A stretch of 64,000 bases of DNA from Clostridiales bacterium (GCA_918292005.1 CAKJZJ010000007.1:85411-149410); one strand, 5' to 3'. Positions 1 to 18,419 are shown, numbered from the stretch's first letter. The notes: generated by a model not told the origin, from the letters alone. Program-made: numbers and translations.

Positions 1-1524
1 TAATCCATATCTTTCAGTTCCTCTAGCTTTATTCTTTACCCATTTTTTAGCTATTTCTAAATTTCGTGTAATTTTAATAGGATATTGGTTTAAATTTAAT
101 AAAGTTTCATTTGCTTTTATAGGATTGTTGTCCAAAAGTTGTTTTACAAAAGCAGATACATTTTCGCTTCTAAATGAGCGAATTGATGTTGCTAAATGCA
201 ACTCTGTTTCAATATGTACGTTAAGCCCTTCTGTTAGTTCTTCAACTCTGCGTCCTCTTGTATATTCATCATCTGTAATCTTATTAGATACATATATATC
301 CCAATGACTAAAAGAACGCCTTAAAGAATCAAACCACTCAATTAATCCTGATTCACCAGTATTAATTTCTTGTCCGCCACCAATTAAGCAAACAATCACA
401 GCCCAATCTTTATGTCTATCTAATGTGCTAATCAAAAATTCCGGCTCGCTGTATTCAAAATCAAATACACCTTTCTTTCTTGACATAAAATTAGCAATTT
501 GTTCTTTTGTCCAAGCTCTTTGCGCTTCATCAAATATTGCTACTTTTTCTGTCGGGATGTCTTCATTTCCTACGTACGCATCTCTATAATGATGAATTAT
601 TTGAATAAAAGATTTTACTTTTCTTAACGCATCGCCTTTTGTTGTTTTACTTCTTTCTTTTTCGTTCCTTGCCAAAGCTTCTTGCAATACGTCAACAAGA
701 GGGAGGTTTCCAGATAAAAACACTGCGTGTTCGTTTTCTTCAAATTTGTGTCTTTCGTTTGCAATATTTATTCCTGCCAGTGTTTTACCTGCGCCAGGAA
801 CACCTGTAATAAAGCAAATTGACTTTTTATTATTCGCTTTCGAATATTCAATAATATCATTAATTTTTTGTGTTGTAACGCTTAAATTATATGCACCAGC
901 ATCAGAACGTGAAATTTCTTCTACGTTATGGTTAGAATACAAAGCTTGTGCAGCTTCAATAATTGTTGGTGTTGGCAAATATGTTGAATTTTCCCAATCG
1001 TCATAATTGAAACTATTTTCGTTGTAGTTTTCTAATATTTTTAAAATCGTTTCTTGTAAATTTTGAAAATTACATAAAAGTGGTTTTATGATTTTGTCTT
1101 CATAAGAAGAAATGTTGTTTTCTCTGCTAGTTGCTGCGCTACAAACTAATATTGGAACAATTAGTTTATCATGACTTTCTTTGTGAAAGTTTTTAAGGTC
1201 AAGAGCATAGTCTAAAACCTGGTCAATTTCATTTCTGTTATACGCTGTTTCTCCAACCTTAAATTCCAATAAGAAAACAATATTGTTTATAAGCAAAACG
1301 TTGTCTATACGTTTCCCAATACGAGGTATTGTATATTCAAATAATATTTTACTGTTTTTATCAAAACAATTTAAAATATCTTTTAATAGTTTAATTTCAT
1401 ATAGCCATGTATTTTTCTGTAAATCATTTAAATCAAATCCATTATTAGTTGCCAACGTTCCTAATATTTCAGTTGCGCTATCGTTAAAAAACTTTTCGAA
1501 ATTACTACTGTAAAAAGACCTCAT
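1..1524 (-). CDS. DUF2075-like nuclease / P-loop NTPase; 3' end lies beyond the window edge (absent from supplied ORF track)
   Basis: Own minus-strand translation. ATG at 1524-1522 is preceded by GGAGGAAG. N-terminus MRSFYSSNFEKFF. RIDNVLL..VFLLEFKVGE is a PD-(D/E)xK-like motif. Walker A ITGVPGAGKT is encoded at 781-810 and Walker B VAIFDEAQRAW at 511-543. The frame stays open to position 1. Confidence 0.75.
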   Translation of the reverse strand, partial: MRSFYSSNFEKFFNDSATEILGTLATNNGFDLNDLQKNTWLYEIKLLKDILNCFDKNSKILFEYTIPRIGKRIDNVLLINNIVFLLEFKVGETAYNRNEIDQVLDYALDLKNFHKESHDKLIVPILVCSAATSRENNISSYEDKIIKPLLCNFQNLQETILKILENYNENSFNYDDWENSTYLPTPTIIEAAQALYSNHNVEEISRSDAGAYNLSVTTQKINDIIEYSKANNKKSICFITGVPGAGKTLAGINIANERHKFEENEHAVFLSGNLPLVDVLQEALARNEKERSKTTKGDALRKVKSFIQIIHHYRDAYVGNEDIPTEKVAIFDEAQRAWTKEQIANFMSRKKGVFDFEYSEPEFLISTLDRHKDWAVIVCLIGGGQEINTGESGLIEWFDSLRRSFSHWDIYVSNKITDDEYTRGRRVEELTEGLNVHIETELHLATSIRSFRSENVSAFVKQLLDNNPIKANETLLNLNQYPIKITRNLEIAKKWVKNKARGTERYGL

Positions 1525-1670
1525 TACACTTCCTCCATTAGTTTATTAATAATTGGTTTATCTGCTGGCGCCCAATCTAAAGTATTTATCTCATCATTTC
1601 GTAACCATTTATAATCTTTGTGTACCAATAATTCAATATTATCTGTTTGTGTATTACAAAGATAAGTCAA
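1524..1670 (-). pseudogene. C-terminal fragment of a NUDIX (MutT-like) hydrolase, N-terminus missing
   Basis: Minus-strand frame reads LTYLCNTQTDNIELLVHKDYKWLRNDEINTLDWAPADKPIINKLMEEV*. This resembles the C-terminal tail of MutT-type proteins (compare HEDATWVDKNTIDTLAWLPADIGIIPDI in the intact NUDIX at 21335-21736). Its stop overlaps the DUF2075 start (TAATG). There is no start codon, and the frame closes at a TGA inside the tRNA-like relic. Confidence 0.55.
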
Positions 1671-1674
1671 TATT

Positions 1675-1703
1675 GCAGGTTCGAGTCCTGCTGGGGGTCA
1701 CCA
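1675..1703 (+). other. tRNA 3'-end relic (T-arm, acceptor strand, CCA), probable att-site remnant
   Basis: GCAGG-TTCGAGT-CCTGC forms a perfect T-arm, followed by TGGGGGTCACCA. No complementary 5' acceptor strand lies upstream. There is one extra nucleotide before CCA. Confidence 0.55.
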
Positions 1704-1766
1704 TAACTATATTTAGCGATTTTTTGTTGTTTAATACAGGAAAAGACAGTTTGAATTTAACTGCCT

Positions 1767-4247
1767 TTAAGAATTTATTATAAATGCTGATTTTTTAGCA
1801 TTTTCATACAGAATATACAGGTTGTGTTTAGCCCTTGTTAAAGCTACATAATACAATCTCTCTTCATCTTCAATAGTGTCTAAAGTGGTGTGACCAAATA
1901 TTTCAAACAAATCATTATTAGAATTAAAAACCGGAAAAACACTTTCGTTGACATTCAATATTATAACCACATCTGCTTCTTCACCCTTTGCTTTATGTAC
2001 GGTCTTCATAAATACGTATTTGTTATATTCGTCTATTGAAACAAACTCTGAACATATTTTTCTAAGAGTTAAATTAAATTCATCTAATTCTTTACCAAGT
2101 ATTTGATTGCTACGGTTTAATATCATAATTTTTTCATTTTGATGTTTCTTTATTATATCAGCACACATTTTCAGGTATTTTGCTTTTTCTATTTTGTGGG
2201 GTTCTTCGTCTGTCAAATATTTTAAATAAACATTATTAACATCATCAAATTTACCTATGTATGTGTTTTGGACATCAATTTCTTTGCTTTCGCCTTTGTT
2301 AATTACTATTCCATTTGGTTTTGGACCTGTAAAGCCGCATTTGCTCATAAATTGATTTGCGAACCAGACTATGTGTTTTTCGCTCCTATAGTTATTCTTG
2401 ATACTCAACAAATTTGTATTTGAATATCTAACAGCAAAATTTGTGTAGTATTTTAAATCTGATCCAGCGAATCTATTTATTGCCTGCCAATCATCTCCGA
2501 CACAAAACAACTTGATATTATTGTTTCTATCTATTATTGAATCAATTAAATAATCAAATAATCTGCTGAAGTCCTGGTATTCATCTATAAGAATCCATTT
2601 TAAATTTTTTATTTTGTCATCCAGTTTTTTATCTTTTATTGCTTTACAGCATTCAAATATTATTTGATTAAAATCATATGCATAATCATTGTATGGTGTG
2701 TAATCGCCAGTATTGTCTGTTTTTGATAAAATTTCAATATACTTTTTATATACTATAAATCCTAATCTATAATACATTTTTGTTCTTTCGTCAGTTATAT
2801 CTTTTGCTTTTTCCACAAAAAGTTCAATGTTATCAAAGTAATTTTGTTGTAGTTTGTTTATAAACTGATCAATTAGTATTGTAAAACCATCTATACTTTT
2901 TGACCACACCTTGTCAATTAAAATATTGTCTGGCAGTTTATTTGCAAAAACATTATGATTATTTAATACGTGTTGTATTTTATCTTCAATAAGTTCGCGG
3001 CTGTCATCAGAGAGGTCTTTATGTGTAGTTTCTATTAATAATTTAACCTCTTTTATAGCTGTATTATATTTGTTAATATTAGCAAGTTTTTCTCTCCATG
3101 CTTTATTCCAAAATTTTTGTTTCCATTCTTTTTTATCAATATACTCTTGATATGGGCAAACAATTTTTGTAAATTCATCTTTTTCTTGTTGGTTTTCTGT
3201 TCCATCAACAGCCCAATGTTCCCAAACAATATTGTATTTTGGTAAATAAAAATCCGGCACAGTTTCTTTAAATTGATCTAAGAATTTAATGCATCTTTCC
3301 AGCTCGCTTTTTGTGAAATTTGCTTTTTCTAGACTAATTTTATACGGGTAATAGCTTTTTTCATATACATAATCTATACCATGTTCAAACAAATAGTCGG
3401 CTATATATTTTTCAATTTTTGATTTTACTTTTTCACCATTTAATGTAATATACTCACAATTTCTAATGTATTTATAGTATGATTCTGTGTCTACGAAATT
3501 TTTTCTATCTATTCTTAGTGTTGCTGCTCTAAAAAATTGATACATATTTCTTGCGAAATCTTGATTGGAAGTTCTCAAATCATTTATTATAAGTTTTAAC
3601 AACTTTGTTCTATCCGTTAATATTTTATTACCTATGTCAATTGACTGTTTAGAAAAAGAGTGGAAAGTTTTTGCAACATCAAAATCTTTGTATTTTAACT
3701 CATGATTGATTTCACATTTATTGTTTAATCTGTCGTTTATTTCTACACTAGCATCGTGGTTAAAGCAAAATGCTAAAACATTGTTGTCTTTTATTTTTTC
3801 TTTTTCAAACAAATAAATGAGTTTTCCAATTATGGTTCTTGTTTTACCAGAGCCGGCACGCGCTGTTGTTAATGAGTTTTGGGTAGATAATATGGCATTT
3901 AGTTGTTCATCATCAAAATAAAATGGTTGATTTTCATATAGCACATTATCAATGAAGAATTTACGTAGACTGCTTCTTTGTTCTTTTAATGGATCAATTT
4001 TAATTTGTGGCTCACTTATGGTTTTTTGTTTGTAGTTCGGAATTATTATTTTCCCATTTGTTATTGCATATTCTGCCATCCATAAGACTGGGCGTCCGAA
4101 CTTTGTAATTGTTTTGCCAGTTTTTTTATCTTTAGCATTAAAGTATGTTCCGTTATGATCAGAATGAACATTGTATAGAATAATTTCTTGCATGGTTTTA
4201 CCACCAGTATATATGGCACTCATTCCATCTTCTAGTTCTGTGTTCAT
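1767..4247 (-). CDS. UvrD/Rep-family SF1A helicase, helicase IV (HelD)-like, with an internal nuclease-like insert
   Basis: Motif I ARAGSGKTRT, motif II ILIDEYQDF, motif III VGDDWQAINRFAGS, NYRS, VHKAKGEEADVVII, YVALTRAKHNLYI. The insert reads KYIADYLFEHGIDYVYEKSY...VPDFYLPKYNIVWEHWA, as in helicase IV-type proteins. SD TAGGAGAAC precedes the ATG. Confidence 0.8.
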   Translation of the reverse strand: MNTELEDGMSAIYTGGKTMQEIILYNVHSDHNGTYFNAKDKKTGKTITKFGRPVLWMAEYAITNGKIIIPNYKQKTISEPQIKIDPLKEQRSSLRKFFIDNVLYENQPFYFDDEQLNAILSTQNSLTTARAGSGKTRTIIGKLIYLFEKEKIKDNNVLAFCFNHDASVEINDRLNNKCEINHELKYKDFDVAKTFHSFSKQSIDIGNKILTDRTKLLKLIINDLRTSNQDFARNMYQFFRAATLRIDRKNFVDTESYYKYIRNCEYITLNGEKVKSKIEKYIADYLFEHGIDYVYEKSYYPYKISLEKANFTKSELERCIKFLDQFKETVPDFYLPKYNIVWEHWAVDGTENQQEKDEFTKIVCPYQEYIDKKEWKQKFWNKAWREKLANINKYNTAIKEVKLLIETTHKDLSDDSRELIEDKIQHVLNNHNVFANKLPDNILIDKVWSKSIDGFTILIDQFINKLQQNYFDNIELFVEKAKDITDERTKMYYRLGFIVYKKYIEILSKTDNTGDYTPYNDYAYDFNQIIFECCKAIKDKKLDDKIKNLKWILIDEYQDFSRLFDYLIDSIIDRNNNIKLFCVGDDWQAINRFAGSDLKYYTNFAVRYSNTNLLSIKNNYRSEKHIVWFANQFMSKCGFTGPKPNGIVINKGESKEIDVQNTYIGKFDDVNNVYLKYLTDEEPHKIEKAKYLKMCADIIKKHQNEKIMILNRSNQILGKELDEFNLTLRKICSEFVSIDEYNKYVFMKTVHKAKGEEADVVIILNVNESVFPVFNSNNDLFEIFGHTTLDTIEDEERLYYVALTRAKHNLYILYENAKKSAFIINS

Positions 4248-4420
4248 TAGTTCTCCTAAATATTTATTACTTCAATTATATCTTATTTTAGTTCATTTGT
4301 ATATGCATTAAGACTAAATGTTGTTAATTTCTAAGCACTCGGAAGAGTGTTGTTTTGATATGACTTTATTTTTTATTGTGTTATAATGAAAATACATTAA
4401 AAATTTTCAGGGGTGCGATA

Positions 4421-4638
4421 GTGAAAAAGTGTCCTAAGATTGTTAGGGGAATTAAGAACAAAATGAAATGGTTGTATATAGTTCTGAAGAACTAAGAGAA
4501 AAGATAAAGCAAATTGGAACATTCGAAAGGTTCAATGGGGGAATATTCAAACAACTAGTAGAAAAGATACTAGTAGATGGAAACAAAGCAACATCTGTAT
4601 TCAATGATATGATAAAAGAAACAAAAATAGTAAAATAA
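4421..4638 (+). pseudogene. Frameshifted C-terminal remnant of a large serine recombinase
   Basis: Two short frames are present. The last reads YSSEELREKIKQIGTFERFNGGIFKQLVEKILVDGNKATSVFNDMIKETKIVK*, which resembles the extreme C-terminus of large serine recombinases. No catalytic domain is present. Confidence 0.4.
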
Positions 4639-4646
4639 AATTAATA

Positions 4647-4680
4647 ACCACTTATCATGAAAGATAGGTGGTCTTTTTTT
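4647..4680 (+). terminator. Intrinsic terminator after the recombinase remnant
   Basis: ACCACTTATC / GATAGGTGGT stem (one G-U pair) followed by a T-run. Confidence 0.6.
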
Positions 4681-4690
4681 GTTCTGCCAA

Positions 4691-4720
4691 CTTGACAATG
4701 GGGTTATATTATGTTATAAT
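4691..4720 (+). promoter_or_regulatory. Promoter P1 (TTGACA, 18 nt, TGT-TATAAT)
   Basis: Consensus -35 at 4691-4696. Extended -10 TGTTATAAT at 4712-4720. Confidence 0.6.
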
Positions 4721-4726
4721 AAACAT

Positions 4727-4825
4727 GTACGAATAAATGAATTGGAGTGTTAATCCCTTTCGTACAAATTTGGGTGGAGCTCTCCGAACTGGACTAGTTA
4801 ATAGTTCAGTTTTTTTATTTTTTTT
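4727..4825 (+). ncRNA. Predicted short transcript 1 (~100 nt), function unknown
   Basis: Starts ~7 nt after the P1 -10 with GTACGAA, which pairs with TTCGTAC (4759-4765). Ends in T7-A-T8 (4810-4825). No SD or credible ORF. Confidence 0.4.
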
Positions 4826-4836
4826 GACAAAACCAC

Positions 4837-4866
4837 TTGACAAACAATTTTTCACTATGTTATAGT
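4837..4866 (+). promoter_or_regulatory. Promoter P2 (TTGACA, 18 nt, TGT-TATAGT)
   Basis: Same architecture as P1. -35 at 4837-4842, extended -10 at 4858-4866. A second TTGACA sits at 4824-4829. Confidence 0.55.
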
Positions 4867-4872
4867 ACAGGC

Positions 4873-4945
4873 GTACGAAAGGGATCTAATTCATTTAGAT
4901 TGACACTCCAAAAAGGTCATGCAAATGGTCTGAGTAGGGTTTTTT
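4873..4945 (+). ncRNA. Predicted short transcript 2, or 5' leader of the downstream operon
   Basis: Begins GTACGAAAGGG. Hairpin ATCTAA-TTCAT-TTAGAT at 4884-4900. GGTCAT-GCAA-ATGGTC hairpin at 4915-4930, then T6 at 4940-4945. Confidence 0.35.
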
Positions 4946-5068
4946 CTGATACAGTTAAGTATCAACACTTGAGAAGGATTTTAACTTAATAATAATTAAT
5001 GCGCAGGTTAGAATTAGGTATTTTTTGCGTGGCTCTATAAAAATTTATATTTTTAAGGAGTTTTATTT

Positions 5069-5416
5069 ATGGCAAATTTTATTTATTCAAGAACAACAGA
5101 CAAAGACAAACAAACATTTTATTTGGTTAGCCAGGACAGAGAGTACTATCTTTTTACACAAAAATTTAGAAGAGGTGTAAAGGAATACTTTCATAACAAA
5201 GTTTTATTGAGAGATGCATTAGATGTATCTAAGAGTCGAAGAGATACAGCATTAATTAGAACAATGACCAAATTTCCTATGTATATAAGGTATATAGAGA
5301 AAGAATATGGTATTACGGTTCTAGAATCAACATTAAAGAAGCAATCTAAAACGAGAAACAACCCATGTGGCAGGTATGGGTTAATAAATGATTCTTGTGA
5401 TTATGCGGTTGCGTAA
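5069..5416 (+). CDS. Small basic protein (115 aa), no recognisable motif; first gene of the four-gene operon
   Basis: ORF with SD AAGGAG 8 nt upstream. K/R-rich. 11-nt gap to the next gene. Confidence 0.7.
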   Translation: MANFIYSRTTDKDKQTFYLVSQDREYYLFTQKFRRGVKEYFHNKVLLRDALDVSKSRRDTALIRTMTKFPMYIRYIEKEYGITVLESTLKKQSKTRNNPCGRYGLINDSCDYAVA

Positions 5417-5427
5417 AAGGAGTTAAA

Positions 5428-7938
5428 ATGAAAAATTTCAAATTAGGGTTTTATCCAGACATAAAAAATAAAGAGATGTTAGATTTGGTAAATGATGGCG
5501 AAGGTCATGATGTTTTATTATCAACTAATAGACTTAATATTGAATTCGATAATAGAGATCAAAGGCTTGTAAAAACAATAAAAGAAGTCAAACTTATTTA
5601 TGAATTAGAAGATAAAGGCTGTCTTATATTGCTCGGAAATTTGGGCTGTGATTTTCGACAACCAATGGGTGGTATGTTCTTTTGTAAAAGGGTATACATT
5701 GACCAAAATGTTGACTATCATGCAATAAAAGGCGTTGAAATGAATATCTGTTTTTCAAATTATCCACTTAGTATTGAAAGCACACAATCAGTACTTGCTA
5801 GATTAGTAGCAGATGAAAACTTTGAGTTTAACTTGTCTCAATTCGATGAGTTTATGGATATTTTCACATTTTATAAGAAATTATCTAGTGAATTAAACAA
5901 TAATACAGCATTTTCAATTAGGTCAATTTCAGATTCTTACTATTATGTTCCTGTAGACGTGAAAGACATTGACATTGATGAAGCAAACCAAATAACAAAC
6001 CTTAATGGAATTGTGACTGGTTATAAGATTGAAAGATATAAATACGACATGCTTTCAAGTGAAAACCAGGATAAAGTAAGAGAATTGGTTGATATAAAAA
6101 TAGAGGTGGGAGAAGAAGATGGAGATGCAGATAGAGCCATAAAAAAGGTAAAGAAATTTGCTGACAATCTATATCTTACACCAACTCAAGAAATTGATGA
6201 GAATATGACAAGAAATCTTGTTGGTTTTGATTTGGTCAATATTCAAAAAGATAAAACTGATGTGGTAGTATCTGGAGAAGCCAGTCTAAGAAAAGATGAA
6301 AAGTATAATTATTTAAACCTATATGATATGGGGCAGAAAGTAAAACTTGAATCAATAGATAATTCTTTAAGATTAATAAAGCAAGGTGCAGCAGGTTCGG
6401 CATGTGAATTGTTAGAATACATCATAGGCTCTAAACAAATGCCATCTAATAATTCAGCAAGACAAGATGGAGATAATAAAGATAATTATATAGAAAACTT
6501 GGATGAATCACAAAAGAAAGCATTCTTAATGGCAACAGATGGTTCACCAGTAAGTCTTATTAAAGGCCCACCAGGAACAGGAAAAACCTATGTAATCAAT
6601 GCAATTGTGCAATATATTACAAAGGAATTAAAACAAAAAGTTGTTATTTCTTCTCAAACACACGTTGCGATTGACAATGTCCTTGATGAGTTAATGGAGA
6701 ACTATGACCTTATTATTCCTAACAGAATAACAAATCGTAGAAACCGTTATTCAGGAGAGGAAATTGACTCAACATTGTATAAAACCTGGGCAAAGAAATT
6801 CGAAAGCCACAATCAAAGAGCAACTGATAAAAAGTTGGCAAAAGCCATTTTGGGAGATATGAGCAACTTTACAGGTAGTCAATTGTTTAGATTCTCTCAA
6901 GATACAACATTAGCAGATTACTCAGTTCTTGGAGCAACAACAACAACGAGTGCAATAGGTGGAAAAAAAGGACTTGAATTGCTAGAAGGATATGATTGGC
7001 TTATTATTGATGAAGTTTCAAAATGTCCTATAACAGAAGTATTAAGATATTTGCCTTATGTTGATAAGATAATAATGGTGGGAGATGACTTCCAGCTAGC
7101 ACCATTATTGGAATTTACTAAGGCAGATGTTGAAGGGTTACCATCATATGATGAAGATAAGTTTAACAAACTAGAATCAATCTATGAAAAATCAGTTTTT
7201 GCAAACACGCTAGAAAAAGCGAGGGAAGCTGGCAGAATGATTGAATTGAATGTTAACTATCGTTCAGTAAAAGCAGTTTTGAATGCTTATAACATTTTCT
7301 ATGATGGCAGATTGCAGAACATGAGAGAAATTGTAAAACCTACAAAAGTTCAATTTAATGATTTCAAAAAATATGAAGATAAAGATATTTTCTTTGTAGA
7401 AGTTAAGAATGGAAAAGAAGCTAAAGATGGAACATCAAGATACAATATTGAAGAGTTGGAAGCAACGGCTGACATATTGAAAGATTTGATGAAGACAGTA
7501 GAAAATCCAATTGGGGTAACGGTTTCAGCAATATTCCCATATGCGGCACAAATTGAAAAATTCCAAAAGAAATATAAAGAACTTATCAATGATGCTAAGA
7601 AACACTTTAAAAGTTTTGAAATTGATACAGTGGATGCATTCCAAGGGAAAGAAACAGACATTGTCTTAGTTAATACTGTTGTGACTATGGAAAAAGGGAA
7701 CTTCTTGAGTGAGTTTAGAAGAATCAATGTCTCAATGTCTAGAGCGAGAGATAAGTTGTTTATCTTTGGAAACTCAATAACATTAAGCAAAATTGAAATG
7801 AGAATCAATGGTGGAAATAAGAGAACTTATTTCAGAGAAATAATTGATGATATAAGAAGATTTGGCAAGATGATTGAATATAATGGAGGGTTAGAGTATG
7901 GTTCAAATAAATCTGAAATTAAGCTTAAGAAAGATTAA
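5428..7938 (+). CDS. SF1B Upf1/DNA2-like helicase (AAA_11/AAA_12 type) with a ~370-aa unassigned N-terminal region
   Basis: LIKGPPGTGKTYV, LIIDEVSKC, MVGDDFQLAPL, NYRS, VDAFQGKETDIVLV, NVSMSRARDKLFIFG. SD AAAGGAG upstream. Confidence 0.85.
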   Translation: MKNFKLGFYPDIKNKEMLDLVNDGEGHDVLLSTNRLNIEFDNRDQRLVKTIKEVKLIYELEDKGCLILLGNLGCDFRQPMGGMFFCKRVYIDQNVDYHAIKGVEMNICFSNYPLSIESTQSVLARLVADENFEFNLSQFDEFMDIFTFYKKLSSELNNNTAFSIRSISDSYYYVPVDVKDIDIDEANQITNLNGIVTGYKIERYKYDMLSSENQDKVRELVDIKIEVGEEDGDADRAIKKVKKFADNLYLTPTQEIDENMTRNLVGFDLVNIQKDKTDVVVSGEASLRKDEKYNYLNLYDMGQKVKLESIDNSLRLIKQGAAGSACELLEYIIGSKQMPSNNSARQDGDNKDNYIENLDESQKKAFLMATDGSPVSLIKGPPGTGKTYVINAIVQYITKELKQKVVISSQTHVAIDNVLDELMENYDLIIPNRITNRRNRYSGEEIDSTLYKTWAKKFESHNQRATDKKLAKAILGDMSNFTGSQLFRFSQDTTLADYSVLGATTTTSAIGGKKGLELLEGYDWLIIDEVSKCPITEVLRYLPYVDKIIMVGDDFQLAPLLEFTKADVEGLPSYDEDKFNKLESIYEKSVFANTLEKAREAGRMIELNVNYRSVKAVLNAYNIFYDGRLQNMREIVKPTKVQFNDFKKYEDKDIFFVEVKNGKEAKDGTSRYNIEELEATADILKDLMKTVENPIGVTVSAIFPYAAQIEKFQKKYKELINDAKKHFKSFEIDTVDAFQGKETDIVLVNTVVTMEKGNFLSEFRRINVSMSRARDKLFIFGNSITLSKIEMRINGGNKRTYFREIIDDIRRFGKMIEYNGGLEYGSNKSEIKLKKD

Positions 7939-9307
7939 GTATATAATTAAAGTGTCATATAACACTTTTGAAAAAGCGACATATGATCAATATTTAATGG
8001 CTAGCCTTGCATTAAGAAGCAAGGATGAACAAAGTGCTTACAAATATATTGATGACATAACGGGTTCGGGCAGTTTAAATGCACATTTTAAACAATTATA
8101 CGATAAAGCTCATAAACTTGATGAAAATCAGTTAAAAAATATCATGGGAAACTCAATGTATCCCATGCTTAAAATCGACAAAAGTAATTCTTATGATTAC
8201 TATCCAGAATTAAATGTTTCTGTATTTAACAATAAATTATATGAAGGAGATTTTGGCAAATATGAAGATTTGATACAAAGACTCTATATCCAAGAAGAAG
8301 TAATCGAATCAGAACTAATTGAGAAAAAGAATACTTCTCTTCCAGAACCATATTCAATTAGATTTGATGAAAGCAAGATTCTAGTAAAGATTGCAGAAGA
8401 ATGGGTAGATTTACCAGAAGAAATATTCCAAGAAGTATTTGAGAATAATTTAACTAGCATTGATAAGATTAAAAGTGAGATACATAATGTGGCAGATGGC
8501 AGTGGCTGGTTTGCACTCACAAATGCAGTAATTAACAATATGTATGCAAACAATAATTATTTCTACGATAATGGAGATCATTGTTTAATTAGAAACGATG
8601 ATGTAAGAAAAACAATTATTTCACAATTGGCAGGTTTCTATATTTACAAAGAAGAAATTATTCCATATGCAGGTAATAAAGATCTATGCGAAAAGGTATT
8701 GAATCTTCTATTAGAGAACAAATCAATCAATGAATTTAAAACAAGGTCAGTAATCACTTTATTAACTTATTCTGATGACTTACTTGCACAAAGTGTAATT
8801 AACTACATCTTGGCAAGAAAAGACTCAAAAGAATTGGCTTTAATGGGTATTGAATTACTTGTTAGGGGAATTGAAAAGAACTGGGAAAACGAAGCTTTGA
8901 AGAGTTTCATGATACATGCTGACAGTTCAAAATATAGTTATATCTATAAGGCAAATCCAAGACTTGTAACTGATATTCAAATGTTGTCAATGATAAATCC
9001 TGATTTCTTAACACCTACACACAGGAAAAAAGTGGAAGAGTATAAGAATAATAGACAGGCTATACGTGACAGCATTGACAAAATGGTTGGAGAAATCGCA
9101 ACAAGTGGAATGAGAGAAAGGGCAAAACAATTAAAGTCAACTGATAAAACTAAGAGATTCCATACATTGGTTAAAAGATATGATGCACATAGTAAAGTTG
9201 ACTATGAGCAAGCAACACTAAAAGAACTTGAAAAATATTTGAAAGAAGTTACCGAAATGTATGACCTTATGAAAGAGCTTCAAAAAGAAGTTAATAAAGA
9301 GAAATAA
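7898..9307 (+). CDS. Hypothetical 469-aa, mostly helical protein, no recognisable motif
   Basis: ORF with SD GGAGGG 7 nt upstream of ATG 7898. Overlaps the helicase gene by 41 nt. The C-terminal part is charged and coiled-coil-like. Confidence 0.7.
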   Translation: MVQINLKLSLRKIKYIIKVSYNTFEKATYDQYLMASLALRSKDEQSAYKYIDDITGSGSLNAHFKQLYDKAHKLDENQLKNIMGNSMYPMLKIDKSNSYDYYPELNVSVFNNKLYEGDFGKYEDLIQRLYIQEEVIESELIEKKNTSLPEPYSIRFDESKILVKIAEEWVDLPEEIFQEVFENNLTSIDKIKSEIHNVADGSGWFALTNAVINNMYANNNYFYDNGDHCLIRNDDVRKTIISQLAGFYIYKEEIIPYAGNKDLCEKVLNLLLENKSINEFKTRSVITLLTYSDDLLAQSVINYILARKDSKELALMGIELLVRGIEKNWENEALKSFMIHADSSKYSYIYKANPRLVTDIQMLSMINPDFLTPTHRKKVEEYKNNRQAIRDSIDKMVGEIATSGMRERAKQLKSTDKTKRFHTLVKRYDAHSKVDYEQATLKELEKYLKEVTEMYDLMKELQKEVNKEK

Positions 9308-9321
9308 GGGGGTTGGTGCTA

Positions 9322-10455
9322 ATGAAAAAGTATGTATTTTATGATTCTGAATCTATAGACATAAAACATAAATATTCTTTTACTTTTGGATATGTGGTTA
9401 CAGATGAAAAATTCAATGTAATAATGCCAAGAGAAGATATCGTGTTTAATCCTGATATACCAAAACAAGATTGGGATTGGTGGGCATATAGAAATATGTT
9501 AATAGAATCATATCCACAAAAACAAATATTGTCAGCAAAGACATTCCCACATTTTTACAAGAAAATAAGTAAATTATTTCAAGGGGATGATGTAATTTGT
9601 ATAGGCTTTGAAATTAATGAAGATGTAAAGTACCTTTTATCAAATTGCGAAAGGTACAACTTAGAGCCTATTAATTTCAAGTATGTTGATCTTAGAGAAA
9701 TACTGAGATACTTGACAGGAAAAAAACCTAATTCTTTGTCTTATGAATATATAAGATACTTGCATGTTCCAGATTATCGTGCTCACAGAAGTGATGTTGA
9801 TGCTGGAATGACGATGCTGGTATTGAAAGAAGCTTTGAGAAAAAGTAAAAAGACATTAGATGATATTCTTAAAGATAAAGAAGATTTGCTTGGCGAATGT
9901 AATGGTTTCTGTTATGGGTTCAAAAATAATATCTTTGACATAAAGAATCCAAGGGAATCAAGTCACGAGAATGTTGGAGGAATCAGAGCAAGAAAACTCA
10001 AGGAAGGCAAAGAAGATTGGATACTAAGAGGCTCAGTAAATAATATAATGTTTACTAGATTCCTTGACTATGTGCAACCAGTGAACGAAATAGAGCAATT
10101 TCTCAAAGGAAAGAAAGTGAACTTTAGTTTAAATTATGAAATGTATCATTATCAAAATATGTTGAAACTTATTCAGATTATAACCGATGCAGGTGGTACA
10201 TATGTGAAAAAAGGTAGTCTTGCAGACATCTTCGTAAAGAACTATGAAGAAAGTTTTGATGAAGAAGGAAACCCAAAACCATGCACTAGATACAATAATG
10301 TAATGAGAGCAATAGAACAAGATGGCAAGGGAATAGAGATACTTGAGTTCGATGAATTCTTGGCTATGTTTAATTTAGATAGAGAAAAGCTAGATGCAAT
10401 GCCACAACTTGATATTGAATACTTAAAAGAAAAAAAATACTTTAGGGCAGGTTAA
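9322..10455 (+). CDS. DEDDh (DnaQ-like) 3'-5' exonuclease with a C-terminal BRCT-like domain
   Basis: Exo I FYDSES, Exo II GFEINEDVKYL, Exo III AHRSDVDAG (H-x4-D). C-terminus GKKVNFS...IITDAGGTYVKKGSLADIFV...GIEILEFDEFL is BRCT-like. ATG 9322 is preferred over the track's TTG 9313 because of spacing from AAGGGGG. Confidence 0.75.
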   Translation: MKKYVFYDSESIDIKHKYSFTFGYVVTDEKFNVIMPREDIVFNPDIPKQDWDWWAYRNMLIESYPQKQILSAKTFPHFYKKISKLFQGDDVICIGFEINEDVKYLLSNCERYNLEPINFKYVDLREILRYLTGKKPNSLSYEYIRYLHVPDYRAHRSDVDAGMTMLVLKEALRKSKKTLDDILKDKEDLLGECNGFCYGFKNNIFDIKNPRESSHENVGGIRARKLKEGKEDWILRGSVNNIMFTRFLDYVQPVNEIEQFLKGKKVNFSLNYEMYHYQNMLKLIQIITDAGGTYVKKGSLADIFVKNYEESFDEEGNPKPCTRYNNVMRAIEQDGKGIEILEFDEFLAMFNLDREKLDAMPQLDIEYLKEKKYFRAG

Positions 10456-10470
10456 AATAATAGGTTATAT

Positions 10471-10509
10471 AAGGGGCCGTTGTGGGTTCGATTCCCGCCG
10501 GGAGTACCA
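10471..10509 (+). other. tRNA 3'-end relic (T-arm, acceptor strand, ACCA)
   Basis: GTGGG-TTCGATT-CCCGC, then CGGGAGT-A-CCA. No matching 5' acceptor strand (ACTCCCG) within 100 nt upstream. Followed by a terminator. Confidence 0.55.
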
Positions 10510-10515
10510 TAAAAA

Positions 10516-10539
10516 GCACCCATGCTTGGGTGCCTTTTT
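10516..10539 (+). terminator. Intrinsic terminator
   Basis: GCACCCA-TGCT-TGGGTGC followed by a T-run. Confidence 0.7.
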
Positions 10540-10613
10540 GTTTTCTATAAAGGTGAATATATTTTTCTAAAATTTGCTCCAAAACCCCAGAATAACCATA
10601 AAAAAGAACGGAT

Positions 10614-13496
10614 TTAATTATCCGTTCCCTTTAGCCAACCAAAGTCTTTTTGCGTTATACAATATTTTTTAAACACATTTGGAACTTTAAAAACATCTCC
10701 GACCATATATAATTCAAACTCAGCTGTAAAATGTTTATCGCCGATATCAAAAGTAAATGATTTTGGTTTATCGTTTTCTTCAAATAAAGATTGATATCCC
10801 TGAATTTTAAATTGGTAATCAGTATTTTGGAATCCTTTAGGATCAATAAAAATAATTTTGTATTTGTTATCAGTCTTTATCCAAAAAATGAAATCAGGAT
10901 AAAATTTATCATATTTGTTATTGCTTTCGTTAAAGTACCAAATAAAAATATTGTCCAGCGTTTGGTCTATTTTAGAAAACATCCATTCCTTTGATGTGTT
11001 TTTGGTTTTAATAAAATCATTTAGATTGTTTACAAAAATAATTTCGGATTCTACGTTTATTATATGTTTTAAATAATTTATTTTATCATTAACTGAAACG
11101 ATAATAGGCGAGTAGTAATGTTCTGCAATATTCAAAAATTCCACTTCATTTTTATAATGTATTTTTTCTTGTGTTTGAATTGAAGAAGAAATCTTTAAAA
11201 GTTCATCTAAATCAATTTTACCAGACTCATAGTCTTTTTTTGCTTGTTTTATAGGATCTGTTTTATTTTGCTGAGCTAAACTTATTAATTGTTGAATTTT
11301 TTTACACTCTTCTTCATTTAGCATTGCTTTTATATGTTTAAAATGAATTATATCGTCTTCGTTAATTAACCTAATTTTATCAACGACTCTTTCTTTTTTA
11401 TTTACATGTTCTACAAGCCTACACAGTGTGTTTTTTATATCTTTATAATTATGCTTATCAGTAATGTGGAATATAGACTTATCGATTAGAGCCTGTTTTA
11501 AGAATTCATAATCATCATTTGTTATCCTAAATAAAAGCATAAACAAAGTTTTATCATAAGCATTAAAATACTTTTTAATTTCTTCCAAACAATCTTCAGA
11601 TATAAAGAACTTAGCTTTTGTCCTTTGCTTTTCGTTTATTTTATAATCAGGTATAACCAAATCGAAAACTGTTTGATTTTTCTTTAATGGTTCTATAAAC
11701 AGTTCCTCATCATTTTTTTGTTCTGCCAGTGTGTCAAGAATTGATTTTACAGCCAACTTGTTTGTGGCGTAAATAAACAATGTTTCAAATAACTCATTTT
11801 TAAATGATTCATTATTTGCGGCTCTTTTTCTTTTGTTAATATTATCTGCTTCAGGTTGAATTCTTACACCTCTACCAATACTCTGCAAAACAAATTTTTT
11901 AGCATCACCAGAGCCAATATTGATAAAATTCATCACATTAGGTCGATTACTATCCCAACCTTCATAGAAAGCTCTACTTCCAAGTAATATATTAATTTTG
12001 CTATCTGGATTGTTAAGAGAATTAAAATAGTTAATTTTAGAATAATTTTTGCCTATAACATAACCATCGCTTAATTTATCTCTTCTAAATTTGTTTGCAT
12101 CACCAATTTTGATTAATAAAAATGGGGACTCTGATGTTTGTAATTGTAAGGCAATTTCTTTTGATGATTCACCCATTTTTATGTCTATTTTTCCATGAGT
12201 ATTTGAATTGAACACATAAAATAGAACATCTTTAATTGTGATTGAATCAATATAACTTTTATAATTTTTTTGTAACTTTTCTTTACCAATTGCAAATGGG
12301 GAACCAGCATACATTTCATTGCTTAATTCTTCCTTGGCACTTTCAAAAGATAAATTATCAACATCTCCAGTAGCAATTTTTTCTATTTCTTTAAAAAACA
12401 TGTAAAGATCAGAATCTTCTTCGTTAACTGTATCTACTAGAGTTACTATTAAAGGATTGTGATAGTATCCTTCCCTTTTAAACTTTTTAATTAATGTGCT
12501 TGTAATCAATGACTTTAGAACTTGCTTTTGTTTCGCAAGATCATTTAACTCATCTTTTTTATGGCTGAAAGTGAAATATGAATTGCTTACAAAAATATTC
12601 TTTCCATAACCATCCTCTATAAACTTTTCTAAATTGTAATTATAAACCGTTGTAACATAGTCAATTGAATCAGTAAAAGTTGCTGAAAAATTAAATAAAA
12701 ATCCATTTCTTGTCCATTGCGTTATATAGTTTTGACGCTTAGAATCACCACTTTTATCACCTTTATGTGCTTCATCTAAGAATACAAACCATTTACCATA
12801 GTTATCATAGGCATTTATGTTAATTTTTTTAGCTTTTTCTTCATCAGAAAGAAGATCGCTTCTATACGAAAATACATTAATTTCATCTAACAGAGTAAAA
12901 GCATTTTTTACTTCATCGAAATCTTTTAAACTGTGAATTCTTATTTGTCTATTTTTACCGTTGTTATATTTCCTAACAGCATTTTTAAATTGTGATTCTA
13001 TGCTTGCATCAGGGAATAATACCATAAATTCATTGTTTGGTATTAGCTTTGCTCTTTTTAAAGTATCTAATATTTCAATAAGTTTTATTAAAACAATAGT
13101 TTTTCCACTTGCAGTTGCCATCCAAAAGCAAGCTCTATTAAAAAGATTATAAGCATCAATAAATTTTTCATTTTCTTTTGTTTTAACATCATAGTACTGA
13201 CTTAAAATTTCAAATAGCTCATTTTTCTTTTTTCTTTCAAATTCATTAATATTATAATTGTTTTTATCCAACCCTAAAGCTACACATTTATCCATTAGTA
13301 ATTCTTTTGATTCTTTATTAGAGTAATACAAGTTTAACAGTTTTAGCACATTTTTTAATGCGTTAACTTGATAGGGGAATAACTCTTTGATTTCATTAGA
13401 AAAATCTACAATATTATCAATTCGCCACGATTGATCCATCGATTCATAATTTATATCATCAAGGAATGATTCATAATATATCTTCATACTATTCAC
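10614..13496 (-). CDS. res: Type III restriction enzyme Res subunit (SF2 helicase plus C-terminal PD-(D/E)xK nuclease)
   Basis: ATASGKT, FLDEAHKGD, SATF, QSIGRGVR. C-terminal YPDFIFW...IIFIDPKG. Start is GTG 13496 (overlapping the mod stop) or ATG 13487. Confidence 0.8.
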   Translation of the reverse strand: MNSMKIYYESFLDDINYESMDQSWRIDNIVDFSNEIKELFPYQVNALKNVLKLLNLYYSNKESKELLMDKCVALGLDKNNYNINEFERKKKNELFEILSQYYDVKTKENEKFIDAYNLFNRACFWMATASGKTIVLIKLIEILDTLKRAKLIPNNEFMVLFPDASIESQFKNAVRKYNNGKNRQIRIHSLKDFDEVKNAFTLLDEINVFSYRSDLLSDEEKAKKININAYDNYGKWFVFLDEAHKGDKSGDSKRQNYITQWTRNGFLFNFSATFTDSIDYVTTVYNYNLEKFIEDGYGKNIFVSNSYFTFSHKKDELNDLAKQKQVLKSLITSTLIKKFKREGYYHNPLIVTLVDTVNEEDSDLYMFFKEIEKIATGDVDNLSFESAKEELSNEMYAGSPFAIGKEKLQKNYKSYIDSITIKDVLFYVFNSNTHGKIDIKMGESSKEIALQLQTSESPFLLIKIGDANKFRRDKLSDGYVIGKNYSKINYFNSLNNPDSKINILLGSRAFYEGWDSNRPNVMNFINIGSGDAKKFVLQSIGRGVRIQPEADNINKRKRAANNESFKNELFETLFIYATNKLAVKSILDTLAEQKNDEELFIEPLKKNQTVFDLVIPDYKINEKQRTKAKFFISEDCLEEIKKYFNAYDKTLFMLLFRITNDDYEFLKQALIDKSIFHITDKHNYKDIKNTLCRLVEHVNKKERVVDKIRLINEDDIIHFKHIKAMLNEEECKKIQQLISLAQQNKTDPIKQAKKDYESGKIDLDELLKISSSIQTQEKIHYKNEVEFLNIAEHYYSPIIVSVNDKINYLKHIINVESEIIFVNNLNDFIKTKNTSKEWMFSKIDQTLDNIFIWYFNESNNKYDKFYPDFIFWIKTDNKYKIIFIDPKGFQNTDYQFKIQGYQSLFEENDKPKSFTFDIGDKHFTAEFELYMVGDVFKVPNVFKKYCITQKDFGWLKGTDN

Positions 13497-15960
13497 CCCA
13501 CCATAGTAGAGGTTTTAATATGTCAAAGAAATGTTGTTTTTCTTTGTCTGTCATATTTTGATAGTCATATTTTTCAATTATTTCTTTGTCTCCATCTCCT
13601 AAAACGACACTATCAGCCGTGATTTTTTTGATAGGTAATCCTAAGACATTTGAAATTGTTTCAGGCAAATCTATGTTTTTATATAGTTTATCTAATTCTA
13701 TTTTTATATCTCCGTTGTTTTCAACACTAAAATTGGAAGTTAGTTTTTTATCAGCAAAGAACGTGTACTGATCATAAATATTATCATTAAATAATGATGG
13801 TGAATTTGGTGAATAATTGGCATTTCTTAACGTATCTTCGTATTGTTCTAGTTCAAAATATTTAAAAAATCCACCCCCAGAAAATTTTGTAGGTACTGTT
13901 ATTCCACAAGGCTCATGTCTTCCAGTTTGAGAAATAACTTCTTTCATTCTTCCCAACAAACCAACTTTATTCACTTTGGCGATAATATATTTATCATTTT
14001 CTTCTTTTTCTATTACATCAAAATCTTTATATAAGTTAATTTGATTTGCAGGTGATTGTTTTAATTTAACTTCAGATATGTATGTATCATTAAAATGGTC
14101 ACCAAGTTCGACACCAATAAATTTTCTTCCCATTTTCTTTGCCACACAAATAGAAGTTCCACTTCCTGCGAAATAGTCTATAAAATATTTGTTTTCAGGA
14201 ATATTAACTAATGATTCTAATAAATGAATTAATCCTTCGGGCTTTTGAGAGTTGCTGAAAGAGAAAAATTCATCAGAAAGATTTAGTACCTTTCGGACAT
14301 TGTATTCGATGTTTGTGTTGGGATCTTTTATGACACCTTCAAAAACATCTCTAAGAAGAGTATCTGTATAATATCTACCTTCTGCATCTTTTTGCGCACC
14401 CATGAAAGATTTTTCCATATATTGTCTTTCTGTTATTGGATTTAATATGAATTTATCTTTGTTTTTTGAGTAAAACAAAATACTGTCATGTTTATAAGGC
14501 ATTGTTTTTGAGTCGGATGCACCACCAGATCTATAAGCCCAAGCAATATTGTTAATAAAGTTTTCTTTCCCAAAAATAGAATCTAATAATTCTCTACCTT
14601 TATGTTCTGCAAAATGATCCAAATGCATAAATATTGATCCCTCTGGATTTAATAAATTATAGGATAGATCCAATCTATCATACATTAGAGAAAGCCATGA
14701 GGAATCTTGATACGCATCAACATATTCGAAATCACTACCCGTATTAAAAGGTGGATCTATATATACTGAATAAATATTATTCTTAAACTTATTTGTTAAA
14801 CTATTTAAAGCTTGATAGTTTTCACTGTGTATTAATCTGCCATCTAAAGCATTATCTAAATTGTCAAAAATACTTAAAATTTCAATTTCTAAATCTTTAA
14901 AATATTTAGTATCAAAAGGTAAGTGCTTATATTTGTCATCATTTAAACTTTCAACAGAGAAATTATCTTCAACTAATTTTAATTTTTTCCATTCTTTTAT
15001 TTGATCTTCAAATCCAGTGTTTGCTTTTAGTTTTGAAATCAAGTCGGTTGTCAATTTATCTTTACTTATAACATAATTTGAATTTTTAACAAATTTTGGT
15101 TTATTCCAAATCCTAACCAATTCATCTTCAAACCCAGAAATGAACTGAATCAGTTTCTGTGCATATTTTTTTATTACTTTAATCTGGTCTAATCTTTTTT
15201 GGTCAAAAACATTTTCGTCTGCAAGAAGTATTTGATTCAAATATAGATCAAGCTGTTCGTTTAAAAATTGTTTTGCATTTTTATTAATAAAAAAGTCAAC
15301 ACTTGTTTGTTTTTCAAATTGACGAATTGCCTTACTAATAATATCTTCATTTACATTTAATTCTTTAGACAATTCTTCAACTTTTGTTTTTGATCTTGAT
15401 TCATAGTCAACAGATAGCACAAAAGTAACATCTCCACTTGTAGCATCATGTAAAGATGTTTTTGTTTTTAGTATTTCTTTTACAGTATATAAAAATCCTT
15501 TCTTTTCATTGTTTTGTTTTTGAGTTGCTTGAGTGGTATCAAACCTAAAAACATATGAAAGACCAGCATCTTTATCTTCAACTTTTATATCTGTAGTATT
15601 TAAAAGCTTGTCAGATTTTACATAATAAAGCATATTTGTCTTCCAAAATAGAACGACATCTTTATTATCCGTATATATTTTTTCATAAACTTTTTGCCAA
15701 TTTGCAGATTGGACAAAATAAATACTTCCTGACTCGCTAAAATATTTGTCAAAAAAGTTACAAAGTTTATCAAAAAACTCCTCTTTAAAGTTGGCATCAA
15801 TAATGCTATCGTGATCCACTTCATTTTTAAACTCGTCAATAACTGATTTGTAATATTTTTCTTTAATTCTTAACAGGTTAACAAATCCACCTTGTCCATC
15901 CATTTTTGCACCTTCAAAAATCCCCTTAAGTGCATTGTAAAAACGTTTTTCTTTTACCAT
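13489..15960 (-). CDS. mod: Type III-like N6-adenine/N4-cytosine DNA methyltransferase (beta class) with a long N-terminal extension
   Basis: Motif IV VYIDPPFNTGSDF precedes motif I DYFAGSGTS (beta-class order). SD AGGAGTG. Coupled to res. Confidence 0.8.
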   Translation of the reverse strand: MVKEKRFYNALKGIFEGAKMDGQGGFVNLLRIKEKYYKSVIDEFKNEVDHDSIIDANFKEEFFDKLCNFFDKYFSESGSIYFVQSANWQKVYEKIYTDNKDVVLFWKTNMLYYVKSDKLLNTTDIKVEDKDAGLSYVFRFDTTQATQKQNNEKKGFLYTVKEILKTKTSLHDATSGDVTFVLSVDYESRSKTKVEELSKELNVNEDIISKAIRQFEKQTSVDFFINKNAKQFLNEQLDLYLNQILLADENVFDQKRLDQIKVIKKYAQKLIQFISGFEDELVRIWNKPKFVKNSNYVISKDKLTTDLISKLKANTGFEDQIKEWKKLKLVEDNFSVESLNDDKYKHLPFDTKYFKDLEIEILSIFDNLDNALDGRLIHSENYQALNSLTNKFKNNIYSVYIDPPFNTGSDFEYVDAYQDSSWLSLMYDRLDLSYNLLNPEGSIFMHLDHFAEHKGRELLDSIFGKENFINNIAWAYRSGGASDSKTMPYKHDSILFYSKNKDKFILNPITERQYMEKSFMGAQKDAEGRYYTDTLLRDVFEGVIKDPNTNIEYNVRKVLNLSDEFFSFSNSQKPEGLIHLLESLVNIPENKYFIDYFAGSGTSICVAKKMGRKFIGVELGDHFNDTYISEVKLKQSPANQINLYKDFDVIEKEENDKYIIAKVNKVGLLGRMKEVISQTGRHEPCGITVPTKFSGGGFFKYFELEQYEDTLRNANYSPNSPSLFNDNIYDQYTFFADKKLTSNFSVENNGDIKIELDKLYKNIDLPETISNVLGLPIKKITADSVVLGDGDKEIIEKYDYQNMTDKEKQHFFDILKPLLWWGE

Positions 15961-16141
15961 AAAATCACTCCTAGTTTACTGATAATTTCATTATATCATA
16001 CTTTTTGTCATTTTGTATGGATTTTATCAGAAAAATAATATTTACTATAAATATAAACTTAAATTACTAGAAAGATCGAATAATAACTTGGCTTTTTGAT
16101 AAAAACGATTTATAGTGTCACACAACGCAAGGAGGTGTAGT

Positions 16142-16498
16142 GTGAAAGCAAGGTTTGTTTATAAAAAGACAGATGCACGACTTGTGCGCAATGCTATTGA
16201 TCGCAAAGAAGGACAAATTCACGAGTATGTTGTTGAAAGAACGATATTTCTTCCAAAAGAAAAGTTTATTCATTTTAGAAGACACTTGCTGGAAGATAAT
16301 GATGCGATAGTGGCCTACAAAAATGAAAAGTACGTTGACGATAATAAAGTATGGCACGTGTGGATGTTCTGTTCAATGATCGCCGATATTATGATCCTTG
16401 TTGACAGCGAAGGATTTAATTATGCGCGCTACTGCTCAATAGTTTGCAATGGAGGTGAACAAGTTGAAAAAAGATTTACAATTAAAGAAAGATATTAA
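16142..16498 (+). CDS. Hypothetical small protein (~118 aa)
   Basis: GTG 16142 lies 6 nt after GGAGG and is in frame with track ORF 16115. Visibly more G+C than its neighbours. No motif recognised. Confidence 0.55.
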   Translation: MKARFVYKKTDARLVRNAIDRKEGQIHEYVVERTIFLPKEKFIHFRRHLLEDNDAIVAYKNEKYVDDNKVWHVWMFCSMIADIMILVDSEGFNYARYCSIVCNGGEQVEKRFTIKERY

Positions 16499-18124: not shown

Positions 18125-18370
18125 AGTAACCTCGAATAAATTATAGCACAGTTTTTATTTAATTGCTATACTTCGACTGAAAAATGCTCAAAATGCACCC
18201 AAGCCATAAAATCTCACAAAAGTTCACCATTTGTGCACCGTAGATTTGAAAGGGGTTGCGTTAAAGATACAAAAGTTAGCCGTTTTGATTAAGATATTGC
18301 ACAATTTTGAGTGTAATTTTCAAAATAATTGTGATTTTTGATATGAAATAAGTTAAAATTATATTTTTCC

Positions 18371-18419
18371 ATTGCTCCTAAGCGGAAGGTCTGCAGTTCA
18401 AATCCGCATACTCACACCA
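18371..18419 (+). other. tRNA 3'-end relic (imperfect T-arm, acceptor strand, ACCA)
   Basis: TGCAG-TTCAAAT-CCGCA (one mismatch), then TACTCAC-A-CCA. No 5' acceptor strand upstream. Followed by the terminator AAACAGC..GCTGTTTTTTT. Confidence 0.5.

Follow-up and report, generated by a model that had tools for sequence, protein, structure and literature searches.

A candidate defence-type operon of gut anaerobes pairs a Upf1-like helicase with an orphan-fold protein under predicted RNA- or CARF-linked control

Introduction

Does the tightly packed helicase-exonuclease operon found in a 64,000-nt stretch of Clostridiales bacterium DNA (GCA_918292005.1 CAKJZJ010000007.1:85411-149410; the window, with positions counted from its first letter) encode a defence system and, if so, one that already has a name? 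The original prediction, made by eye, described a unit of four genes, here G1, HEL, G3 and G4: a small basic protein, a Upf1/DNA2-like superfamily 1B (SF1B) helicase, a helical protein and a DEDDh exonuclease fused to a BRCT-like domain. From sequence comparison we consider it somewhat better than even (about 0.55) that the operon represents an unnamed, horizontally mobile candidate defence-type system of gut anaerobes. Its most informative features, a pair of small RNAs encoded upstream and a sister clade with a CARF protein and a sigma-like protein, had both been missed.

Results

A three-gene core and a recruited exonuclease

All four open reading frames (ORFs) lie on the + strand (Table 1), and re-reading them gave exactly the junctions described before: an 11-nt gap, a 41-nt overlap and a 14-nt gap, the last measured from the ATG start of gene 4 at 9322 (377 aa; 380 aa if the TTG at 9313 is the start). 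Each gene has homologues, with 34-96% identity, in many independent contigs, and hence the genes are real.

Related loci (L numbers) were fetched via G3 from metagenomes and a one-genome-per-species collection, and every gene family in them was mapped. Gene content was compared across about 30 loci overall; the counts for G1, G4 and the CARF protein refer to the 25 loci of the first comparison. HEL and G3 lie next to each other wherever both are visible, and every such locus keeps an overlap of 38 or 41 nt. G1 comes first in the operon in 18 of the 25 loci, and a 148-aa protein occupies its place in four. The G1-HEL-G3 set stands alone between housekeeping genes in L030, with no recombinase nearby, and adjoins an integrase in L031.

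The exonuclease gene behaves differently. It was present in seven of the 25 loci, with an eighth (L043) found through G4 itself, and follows G3 in the window, L009 and L010, lies between G1 and the next genes in L018, L021, L029 and L043, and in L028 sits in a separate small operon 2 kb downstream, behind the system promoter motif described below. Members of the G4 family are also found in the absence of HEL and G3: closing a three-gene operon behind an HTH gene (627-739 aa) and a gene for a 243-253-aa protein, standing singly downstream of a small HTH gene (L047, L048), within an element that carries Zot, Rep and PcfJ genes (L040), and within a WYL/Macro island (L042). The core has recruited the exonuclease more than once and, since G4 is variably present and placed and is found elsewhere too, what was proposed as a functional unit of four genes is better described as a core of HEL, G3 and G1, seen without the exonuclease, plus a promiscuous recruited nuclease.

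Some further observations concern these genes. The three-gene HTH operon (L044 5005-9128, L045 5355-9137, L046 2471-6253) may be a second unnamed system. L028 has two diverged copies of the G1 family (2886-3170 and 5683-5967). Gene 3 is split into pieces of 343 and 140 aa in L027 (9977-11421) and gene 1 has an in-frame stop in L012 (1829-2170), which may reflect decay of the system or assembly errors.

HEL is an Upf1-like helicase with a family-specific N-terminal domain

The helicase motifs GPPGTGKT, DEVSKC, GDDFQLAPL, VDAFQGKETDIV and SMSRARDKL, listed in the original prediction, are all present in HEL, with K386 in the Walker A motif, and invariant in 17 homologues. They belong to a core at about aa 357-790, and the protein ends 50 aa past motif VI. 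HEL matches Pfam AAA_11/AAA_12 and, by PDB profile, Upf1 (1e-30), Sen1, IGHMBP2 and DNA2; its NCBIfam matches (IGHMBP2 family, 'PLuB system helicase-like', ProA) are far under their cut-offs. In PADLOC, aa 211-812 align with positions 476-1100 of the 1112 in the MkoA profile PDLC03920 (E 1.2e-79), so that aa 211-370, upstream of the core, are also common with MkoA; the match to MkoC (3e-29) covers the helicase part only (aa 518-786).

The remaining aa 1-210 form a beta-rich domain specific to the family. A search with the N-terminus returned mostly fragments, and it was this alignment that fed an AlphaFold2 (AF2) model of the first 360 aa (pLDDT 73), which contains several beta-rich domains and has no fold match in PDB, the best matches being beta-barrels with E >0.01. 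A PD-(D/E)xK nuclease, formerly suggested from a weak D...EVK pattern in this region, was rejected because E53 is variable among homologues; moreover, no nuclease fold matched the model.

G3 and G1 have no recognizable relatives

No family in PADLOC, Pfam, NCBIfam or PHROGs matched G3. Its 169 close database relatives are all of ~470 aa and unnamed, and a G3 profile run against 1.84 billion cluster representatives (50% identity) gave 134 matches, all of them full-length (~470 aa) or fragments, with neither fusions nor distant relatives among them. The AF2 model (pLDDT 90) is beta-rich in its N-terminal half and helical in its C-terminal half, which corrects the initial description of a helical protein. 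Polar residues K26, D30, H63, D94, H228 and R406/E407 are invariant in G3. Known folds were sought with Foldseek and rejected (best E 0.35 in PDB and 0.16 among the viral models of BFVD, none <0.1), and the modelled fold appears to be novel, without known relatives. For G1, in which no motif had been placed by eye, the same four libraries and a PDB profile search likewise gave no match.

Two small RNAs are predicted upstream of the operon

In the clade to which the window belongs, the non-coding stretch upstream of the operon is more conserved across loci than G1 itself. It has two promoters, nearly perfect by the sigma-70 consensus, from which a terminated small RNA (RNA1) and the operon leader (RNA2) would start in tandem. 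The -35 TTGACA of the first promoter is kept in most aligned loci, L009 and L010 being offset in that block. RNA1 shows covariation: both partners have changed in 11 of its 28 pairs, and pairing holds in 98.9% of cells, a result that none of 500 shuffles reached and no slid register came near.

Nucleotides 16-39 of RNA1 are complementary to two stretches of RNA2, nucleotides 1-13 and ACACUCCAA (4903-4911), with a covarying hairpin between them. For every one of the nine loci tested, an energy of -34 to -39 kcal/mol is predicted for the RNA1:RNA2 duplex, and the two RNAs show compensatory changes in L031 and L024, which are diverged. The 3' block of RNA2, CUCCAAAAAGGUCA...AUGGUCUGAGUAGG (to ~4940), is nearly invariant, the sole difference being one G/A in L030, and its five matches among 241 million metagenome records are all directly upstream of G1-HEL. 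By nhmmer, each RNA occurs once per locus and is confined to loci of the window clade; neither has a match in Rfam. ACUCC of RNA2 (4905-4909) pairs with the G1 Shine-Dalgarno (5057-5061) in both minimum-energy and alignment folds, and RNA1 could therefore compete with this pairing.

A short hairpin (GAUAC...GUAUC; window 4945-4965) follows the U-run of RNA2, and its stem is kept via different sequences in L022, L031, L024 and L039.

A sister clade carries a CARF protein and a sigma-like protein

A sister clade is without the RNA pair, as seen by nhmmer, and carries two additional genes, placed after the first gene and ahead of HEL. One encodes a stand-alone CARF protein of 205-212 aa (PADLOC CARF2 3e-78, Csx1 6e-49), found in 12 of the 25 loci and together with the product of the other, a sigma-like protein of ~290 aa with weak similarity to sigma-70 region 3/4. 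The motif TGTTAAG-N14-21-CTATA (TGTTAAG-N17-CTATATAA in one form) stands before the first gene and before HEL in CARF-type loci, as well as before an accessory operon downstream of G3 in L028 and L043. It is always on the + strand, would occur by chance about 0.3 times per 64 kb, is absent from the window and is presumably read by the sigma-like protein of the same loci. That a single core is connected to one of two switches, RNA-based or CARF/sigma-based, argues for tight gating of its expression.

No Cas10 was found within 6.5 kb of CARF-type loci, nor any cas genes among the most frequent families in a survey of 125 proteins from the flanks of the cluster (19 loci); the window has no CARF or SAVED sensor by PADLOC.

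Two sets of additional genes were noted. A ThiC-like radical SAM protein (Pfam 3e-92), an enzyme unexpected for such an operon, and a 185-aa protein with no family match in the one copy scanned recur in or beside the CARF-type cluster (L015 5735-7445, L018 10949-12648, L019 10778-12477, L021 2482-4196). Other accessory genes beside the core encode an NYN RNase fused to LOTUS/OST-HTH, a radical SAM protein and a Sel1-repeat protein, the last between gene 1 and the helicase gene (L018 10109-10927, which is the NYN-LOTUS gene; L028 11581-13196; L016 1684-2541).

The exonuclease residues are conserved, its C-terminal half is unassigned

In G4, D104, H158 and D163 are invariant in six of six homologues, and the five full-length homologues all retain D11/E13, in agreement with the DEDDh assignment. 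Its own matches are weak: RNase_T at 17.4 bits, below the Pfam cut-off, phrog_192 at 2e-9 and, by PDB profile, only Orn, Cas2-DEDDh and ISG20 (E 1e-3 to 0.1). Distant members of the family score above Pfam cut-offs (P0325 and P0328 for RNase_T; P0323 and P0325 for DEDDh_C). The BRCT half of the original assignment is unproven. This conserved C-terminal region of ~200 aa gave a BRCT_2 signal in the L018 homologue alone (E 0.029), nothing by PDB profile search, and an hhalign probability of 2.5% over 16 columns with a BRCT sequence of Escherichia coli LigA.

The system occupies variable, defence-rich sites

Across related loci the genes co-occur in variable, defence-rich places, as had been anticipated. 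Recurrent families in the flank survey are Fic/SoFic-like proteins (SoFic-like Fic matched by 6 of the 125), type I restriction-modification, serine recombinases and integrases; integrases or recombinases stand beside the operon in some loci, such as L001 and L031, and in L007 TIR and RnlAB genes adjoin the cluster. The overall setting is a variable island in which genes for restriction-modification, toxin-antitoxin, TIR and Fic proteins occur along with the end of a prophage. The hosts are uncultured gut or rumen Clostridia, Lachnospiraceae, Christensenellales, Gastranaerophilales and Bacteroidales, with a patchy spread.

Homologues in phage or plasmid replication modules would have spoken for another role. 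We found no match in 50,697 phage records or 72,556 plasmid records and a single one in 2.9 million viral contigs, where the genes come after tail and holin genes, at the prophage end; a phage or plasmid origin was rejected on these counts.

In the window, GC content is 27-32% over positions 1-20000 and 35-38% in the remainder. The type III restriction-modification pair, DUF2075 ATPase and helicase IV-like gene named as defence-island neighbours in the original prediction were all found in place (Table 1). The claimed recombinase stubs and tRNA relics fared less evenly. One tRNA 3' fragment, unique in the window, can be read directly after gene 4 and is probably an old attachment-site remnant at the edge of the insert; ARAGORN found no tRNA in the window, and the recombinase stub at 4468-4638 was seen by eye, without Pfam support. 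An identical 26-mer of the tRNA fragment lies at L045 4048-4073(-) and L046 1164-1189(-), beside different cargo. These two loci represent a near relative of the window genome, with the same fragment and a UvrD-like protein 94% identical, and between these two landmarks they carry the 627-aa HTH gene, the gene for the 243-aa protein and an exonuclease gene whose product is 61% identical. The site is therefore a variable insertion hot spot.

Farther along the window, a 318-aa ORF (18506-19462) has a borderline KwaB-like (Kiwa) Pfam match (26.1 bits versus a cut-off of 26.3), and its 541-aa neighbour, 16499-18124(-), has no family match. Two loci only distantly similar to each other (L014 11432-14269, L028 14430-17285) both have a BtuF/FecCD/ABC-type uptake operon immediately downstream of the cluster, which may reflect a shared insertion site or chance.

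Table 1. Coordinates of the operon, its upstream elements, its neighbours in the window and examples of the sister-clade promoter motif
Feature	Position	Strand	Remarks
Promoter of RNA1	4692-4720	+	TTGACA-17-TATAAT with TG; 12/12 consensus
RNA1, ~90 nt	4727-4820	+	5' hairpin P1, internal helix, intrinsic terminator 4786-4812
Promoter of RNA2/operon leader	4837-4866	+	TTGACA-18-TATAGT with TG; 11/12
RNA2 / operon 5' leader	4873-5068	+	Starts from second promoter
G1, basic protein, 115 aa	5069-5416	+	First gene of operon; no family
HEL, Upf1-like SF1B helicase, 836 aa	5428-7938	+	PADLOC, Pfam, PDB profile
G3, signature protein, 469 aa	7898-9307	+	41-nt overlap with helicase gene, translational coupling
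G4, DEDDh 3'-5' exonuclease (aa 1-180) plus C-terminal half	9322-10455	+	Accessory gene
tRNA 3' fragment (T-arm and acceptor-CCA)	~10473-10509	+	Read directly
Intrinsic terminator closing operon	10516-10533	+	
SLFN-g3/DUF2075 helicase	1-1542	-	
UvrD/helicase IV-like gene	1767-4247	-	Pfam, NCBIfam
Type III Res/Mod pair	10614-15960	-	PADLOC, Pfam
TGTTAAG-N14-21-CTATA motif, L007	4916-4944, 4996-5024, 7430-7458	+	CARF-type promoter motif
TGTTAAG-N14-21-CTATA motif, L028	11460-11488	+	CARF-type promoter motif

Discussion

How might such an operon work? The core would consist of an Upf1/MkoA-like 5'-3' SF1B helicase and its partner G3, with the small basic G1, and in the window a DEDDh 3'-5' exonuclease would have been recruited to it as a further effector. 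Because HEL and G3 are translationally coupled, we infer that they form a stoichiometric complex, which could load on foreign RNA, RNA:DNA hybrids or single-stranded DNA ends and then translocate. The damaging step would fall to G3, and to G4 where present, with G4 degrading 3' ends exposed by the motor. The complex is presumably harmful, and its expression would therefore be kept under tight control. In the window clade, constitutive RNA1 would pair with the first ~40 nt of the leader RNA2, which bears the putative anti-Shine-Dalgarno element; in the sister clade, the sigma-like protein and CARF sensor would drive the core from their private motif in answer to a nucleotide or RNA-end alarm. 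A bolder version, which we regard as a long shot, has the RNA1:RNA2 duplex as a guarded sensor at which HEL-G3, with G1 on the RNA2 block, would be retained or silenced until a phage altered RNA1 levels or cleaved the duplex; G3 would then be an effector of unseen fold, and one core would accept interchangeable RNA or nucleotide alarm inputs.

Several findings weigh against a regulated defence system of this kind. The three-gene core has no recognizable nuclease or toxic domain, and as neither G3 nor the HEL N-terminus has fold relatives, the effector step is conjecture. Integrases adjoin many of the loci, and the system may instead serve the biology of an integrative element. As for control, the anti-Shine-Dalgarno pairing is 5 bp only and the leader folds no better than its shuffles (z = -1.0); the RNA covariation comes from ~10 sequences representing three or four diverged lineages only; repeated GTACGAA-type boxes may in part be co-evolving protein operators instead of reflecting RNA pairing; and the sigma assignment is weak (E ~0.003-0.01).

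The same observations can be read in other ways. RNA1 might be the antisense antitoxin of a toxic G1-HEL-G3 in an addiction module that stabilizes the island, with phage defence a by-product through abortive infection. RNA1 is strictly linked to the operon, which resides in islands and next to recombinases, as such a module would be. However, an 836-aa helicase with a 469-aa partner far exceeds known type I or type III toxins, RNA1 could activate as well as repress, and the CARF/sigma switch that the sister clade has, with no RNA pair, favours signal-induced expression over addiction. We consider an addiction module unlikely.

Somewhat less likely again is a divergent Mokosh, with a shortened MkoA, G3 or G4 in place of the PLD nuclease MkoB, and the Mokosh mechanism. 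The MkoA and MkoC matches point that way, as does the Upf1-like core described for MkoA, but MkoA positions 1-475 are unmatched and HEL has no kinase, no PLD is found in G1, G3 or G4, and G3 is without any fold relative, while Mokosh is defined by a helicase plus PLD (Millman et al., 2022).

Quite improbable, in our view, is a replication, transfer or maintenance module of an integrative element, in which helicase and exonuclease would serve as DNA-processing enzymes. The by-eye recombinase remnant and the attachment-like tRNA fragment do bracket the operon, integrases adjoin it in L001 and L031, the exonuclease family occurs in the Zot/Rep/PcfJ element, and the PHROG matches are DNA helicase and polymerase-exonuclease families. 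Yet the core sits between housekeeping genes in L030 with no recombinase nearby, plasmid and phage records gave no match, the sole viral contig has it after lysis genes and outside the replication module, the helicase is Upf1/MkoA-like and not replicative or relaxase-linked, and a CARF link would be unexpected for such a module. Host housekeeping RNA surveillance or repair, with an Upf1-like helicase and a 3'-5' exonuclease degrading aberrant RNA, is highly improbable: Upf1, Sen1 and IGHMBP2 are the nearest solved relatives of HEL, the exonuclease weakly matches oligoribonuclease and ISG20 and an NYN-LOTUS RNase adjoins in L018, but the family, with 134 clusters (50% identity) among 1.84 billion proteins, is very rare, patchy across phyla, located in a low-GC island and at differing genomic sites, and variable between near-identical strains.

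If the candidate defence-type system does prove protective, it would add a defence family to the helicase branch that holds Mokosh and human Upf1/MOV10, with a structurally novel partner, and the helicase would prove to be a reusable sensor module. Two control devices on one core also provide a natural experiment in the silencing of toxic immune effectors, and G3 and the two RNAs represent families new to structure and RNA databases, respectively. The system is rare and many comparable candidates exist; its interchangeable control and orphan fold raise it above the average candidate, and it is confined to little-studied gut anaerobes, in which few defence systems have been tested.

As originally proposed, this combination of genes belongs to no named system: the only parts that PADLOC, Pfam, NCBIfam and PHROGs could name are the helicase core and, with weak matches, the exonuclease, and a literature search found no such system. 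The distinction from Mokosh drawn at the outset holds, although the helicase is nearer to MkoA than was then supposed. With Mokosh type I the operon shares a central Upf1-like, COG1112-type SF1B helicase, matched over the whole helicase half and ~150 aa upstream, and a defence-island location. It differs in that HEL is without the Ser/Thr-kinase N-terminal half (no Pfam kinase), G1, G3 and G4 have no PLD or MkoB match in PADLOC or Pfam, and no MkoB/PLD gene is found among called flanking genes or the most frequent flank families; its partners are instead G1 and G3, with or without the DEDDh exonuclease, under their own small-RNA or CARF/sigma control. The kinase half and PLD nuclease were looked for and are absent, and the system is therefore not Mokosh. 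In Mokosh type II, MkoC joins an N-terminal helicase to a C-terminal PLD in one protein, of which only the helicase is matched here. Nhi is a single gene for a nuclease fused to an SF1 helicase, whereas aa 1-360 of HEL have no nuclease family or fold and HEL is not seen without G3; no Nhi model was among the PADLOC matches, the presence of one in PADLOC-DB 2.0 being unverified.

Hachiman (HamB/HamA) and Gabija (GajB/GajA) share the principle of a helicase, serving as motor or sensor, that inhibits or positions a second protein made alongside it from tightly coupled genes, but HamB is SF2 and GajB a UvrD-like SF1A helicase, unlike the SF1B Upf1-like HEL, and G3 has no similarity to HamA or GajA and no PADLOC match. 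CARF-controlled transcription in immunity is exemplified by Csa3, sigma release by CalpL-CalpT-CalpS and the RtcR-like CARF regulators proposed for CoCoNuT superoperons. Like these, the sister-clade CARF and sigma-like genes precede effectors with a private promoter motif, a concept that agrees with the one discussed in PMC11090510; in contrast, the CARF protein is stand-alone, the sigma-like protein is separate and there is no protease or anti-sigma, and the window has neither CARF nor sigma. Type I toxin-antitoxin and RNA-IN/RNA-OUT-like pairs resemble the window clade in having a terminated small RNA with a strong promoter that pairs with the 5' end of a target mRNA, where an anti-Shine-Dalgarno element may be present, but RNA1 lies in tandem on the same strand and not opposite its target, would pair through two blocks around a hairpin in a three-way junction, and has as its target a 5.4-kb multi-enzyme operon. 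With Cas2-DEDDh, ISG20 and oligoribonuclease, its sole PDB sequence matches, G4 has the D-E-D-D-h residues in common; it departs from them in the weakness of those matches, its extra C-terminal half of ~200 aa and its movement between operons. Altogether, within the helicase-plus-effector systems of the Mokosh branch, G1, G3 and the RNA1/RNA2 pair are new components.

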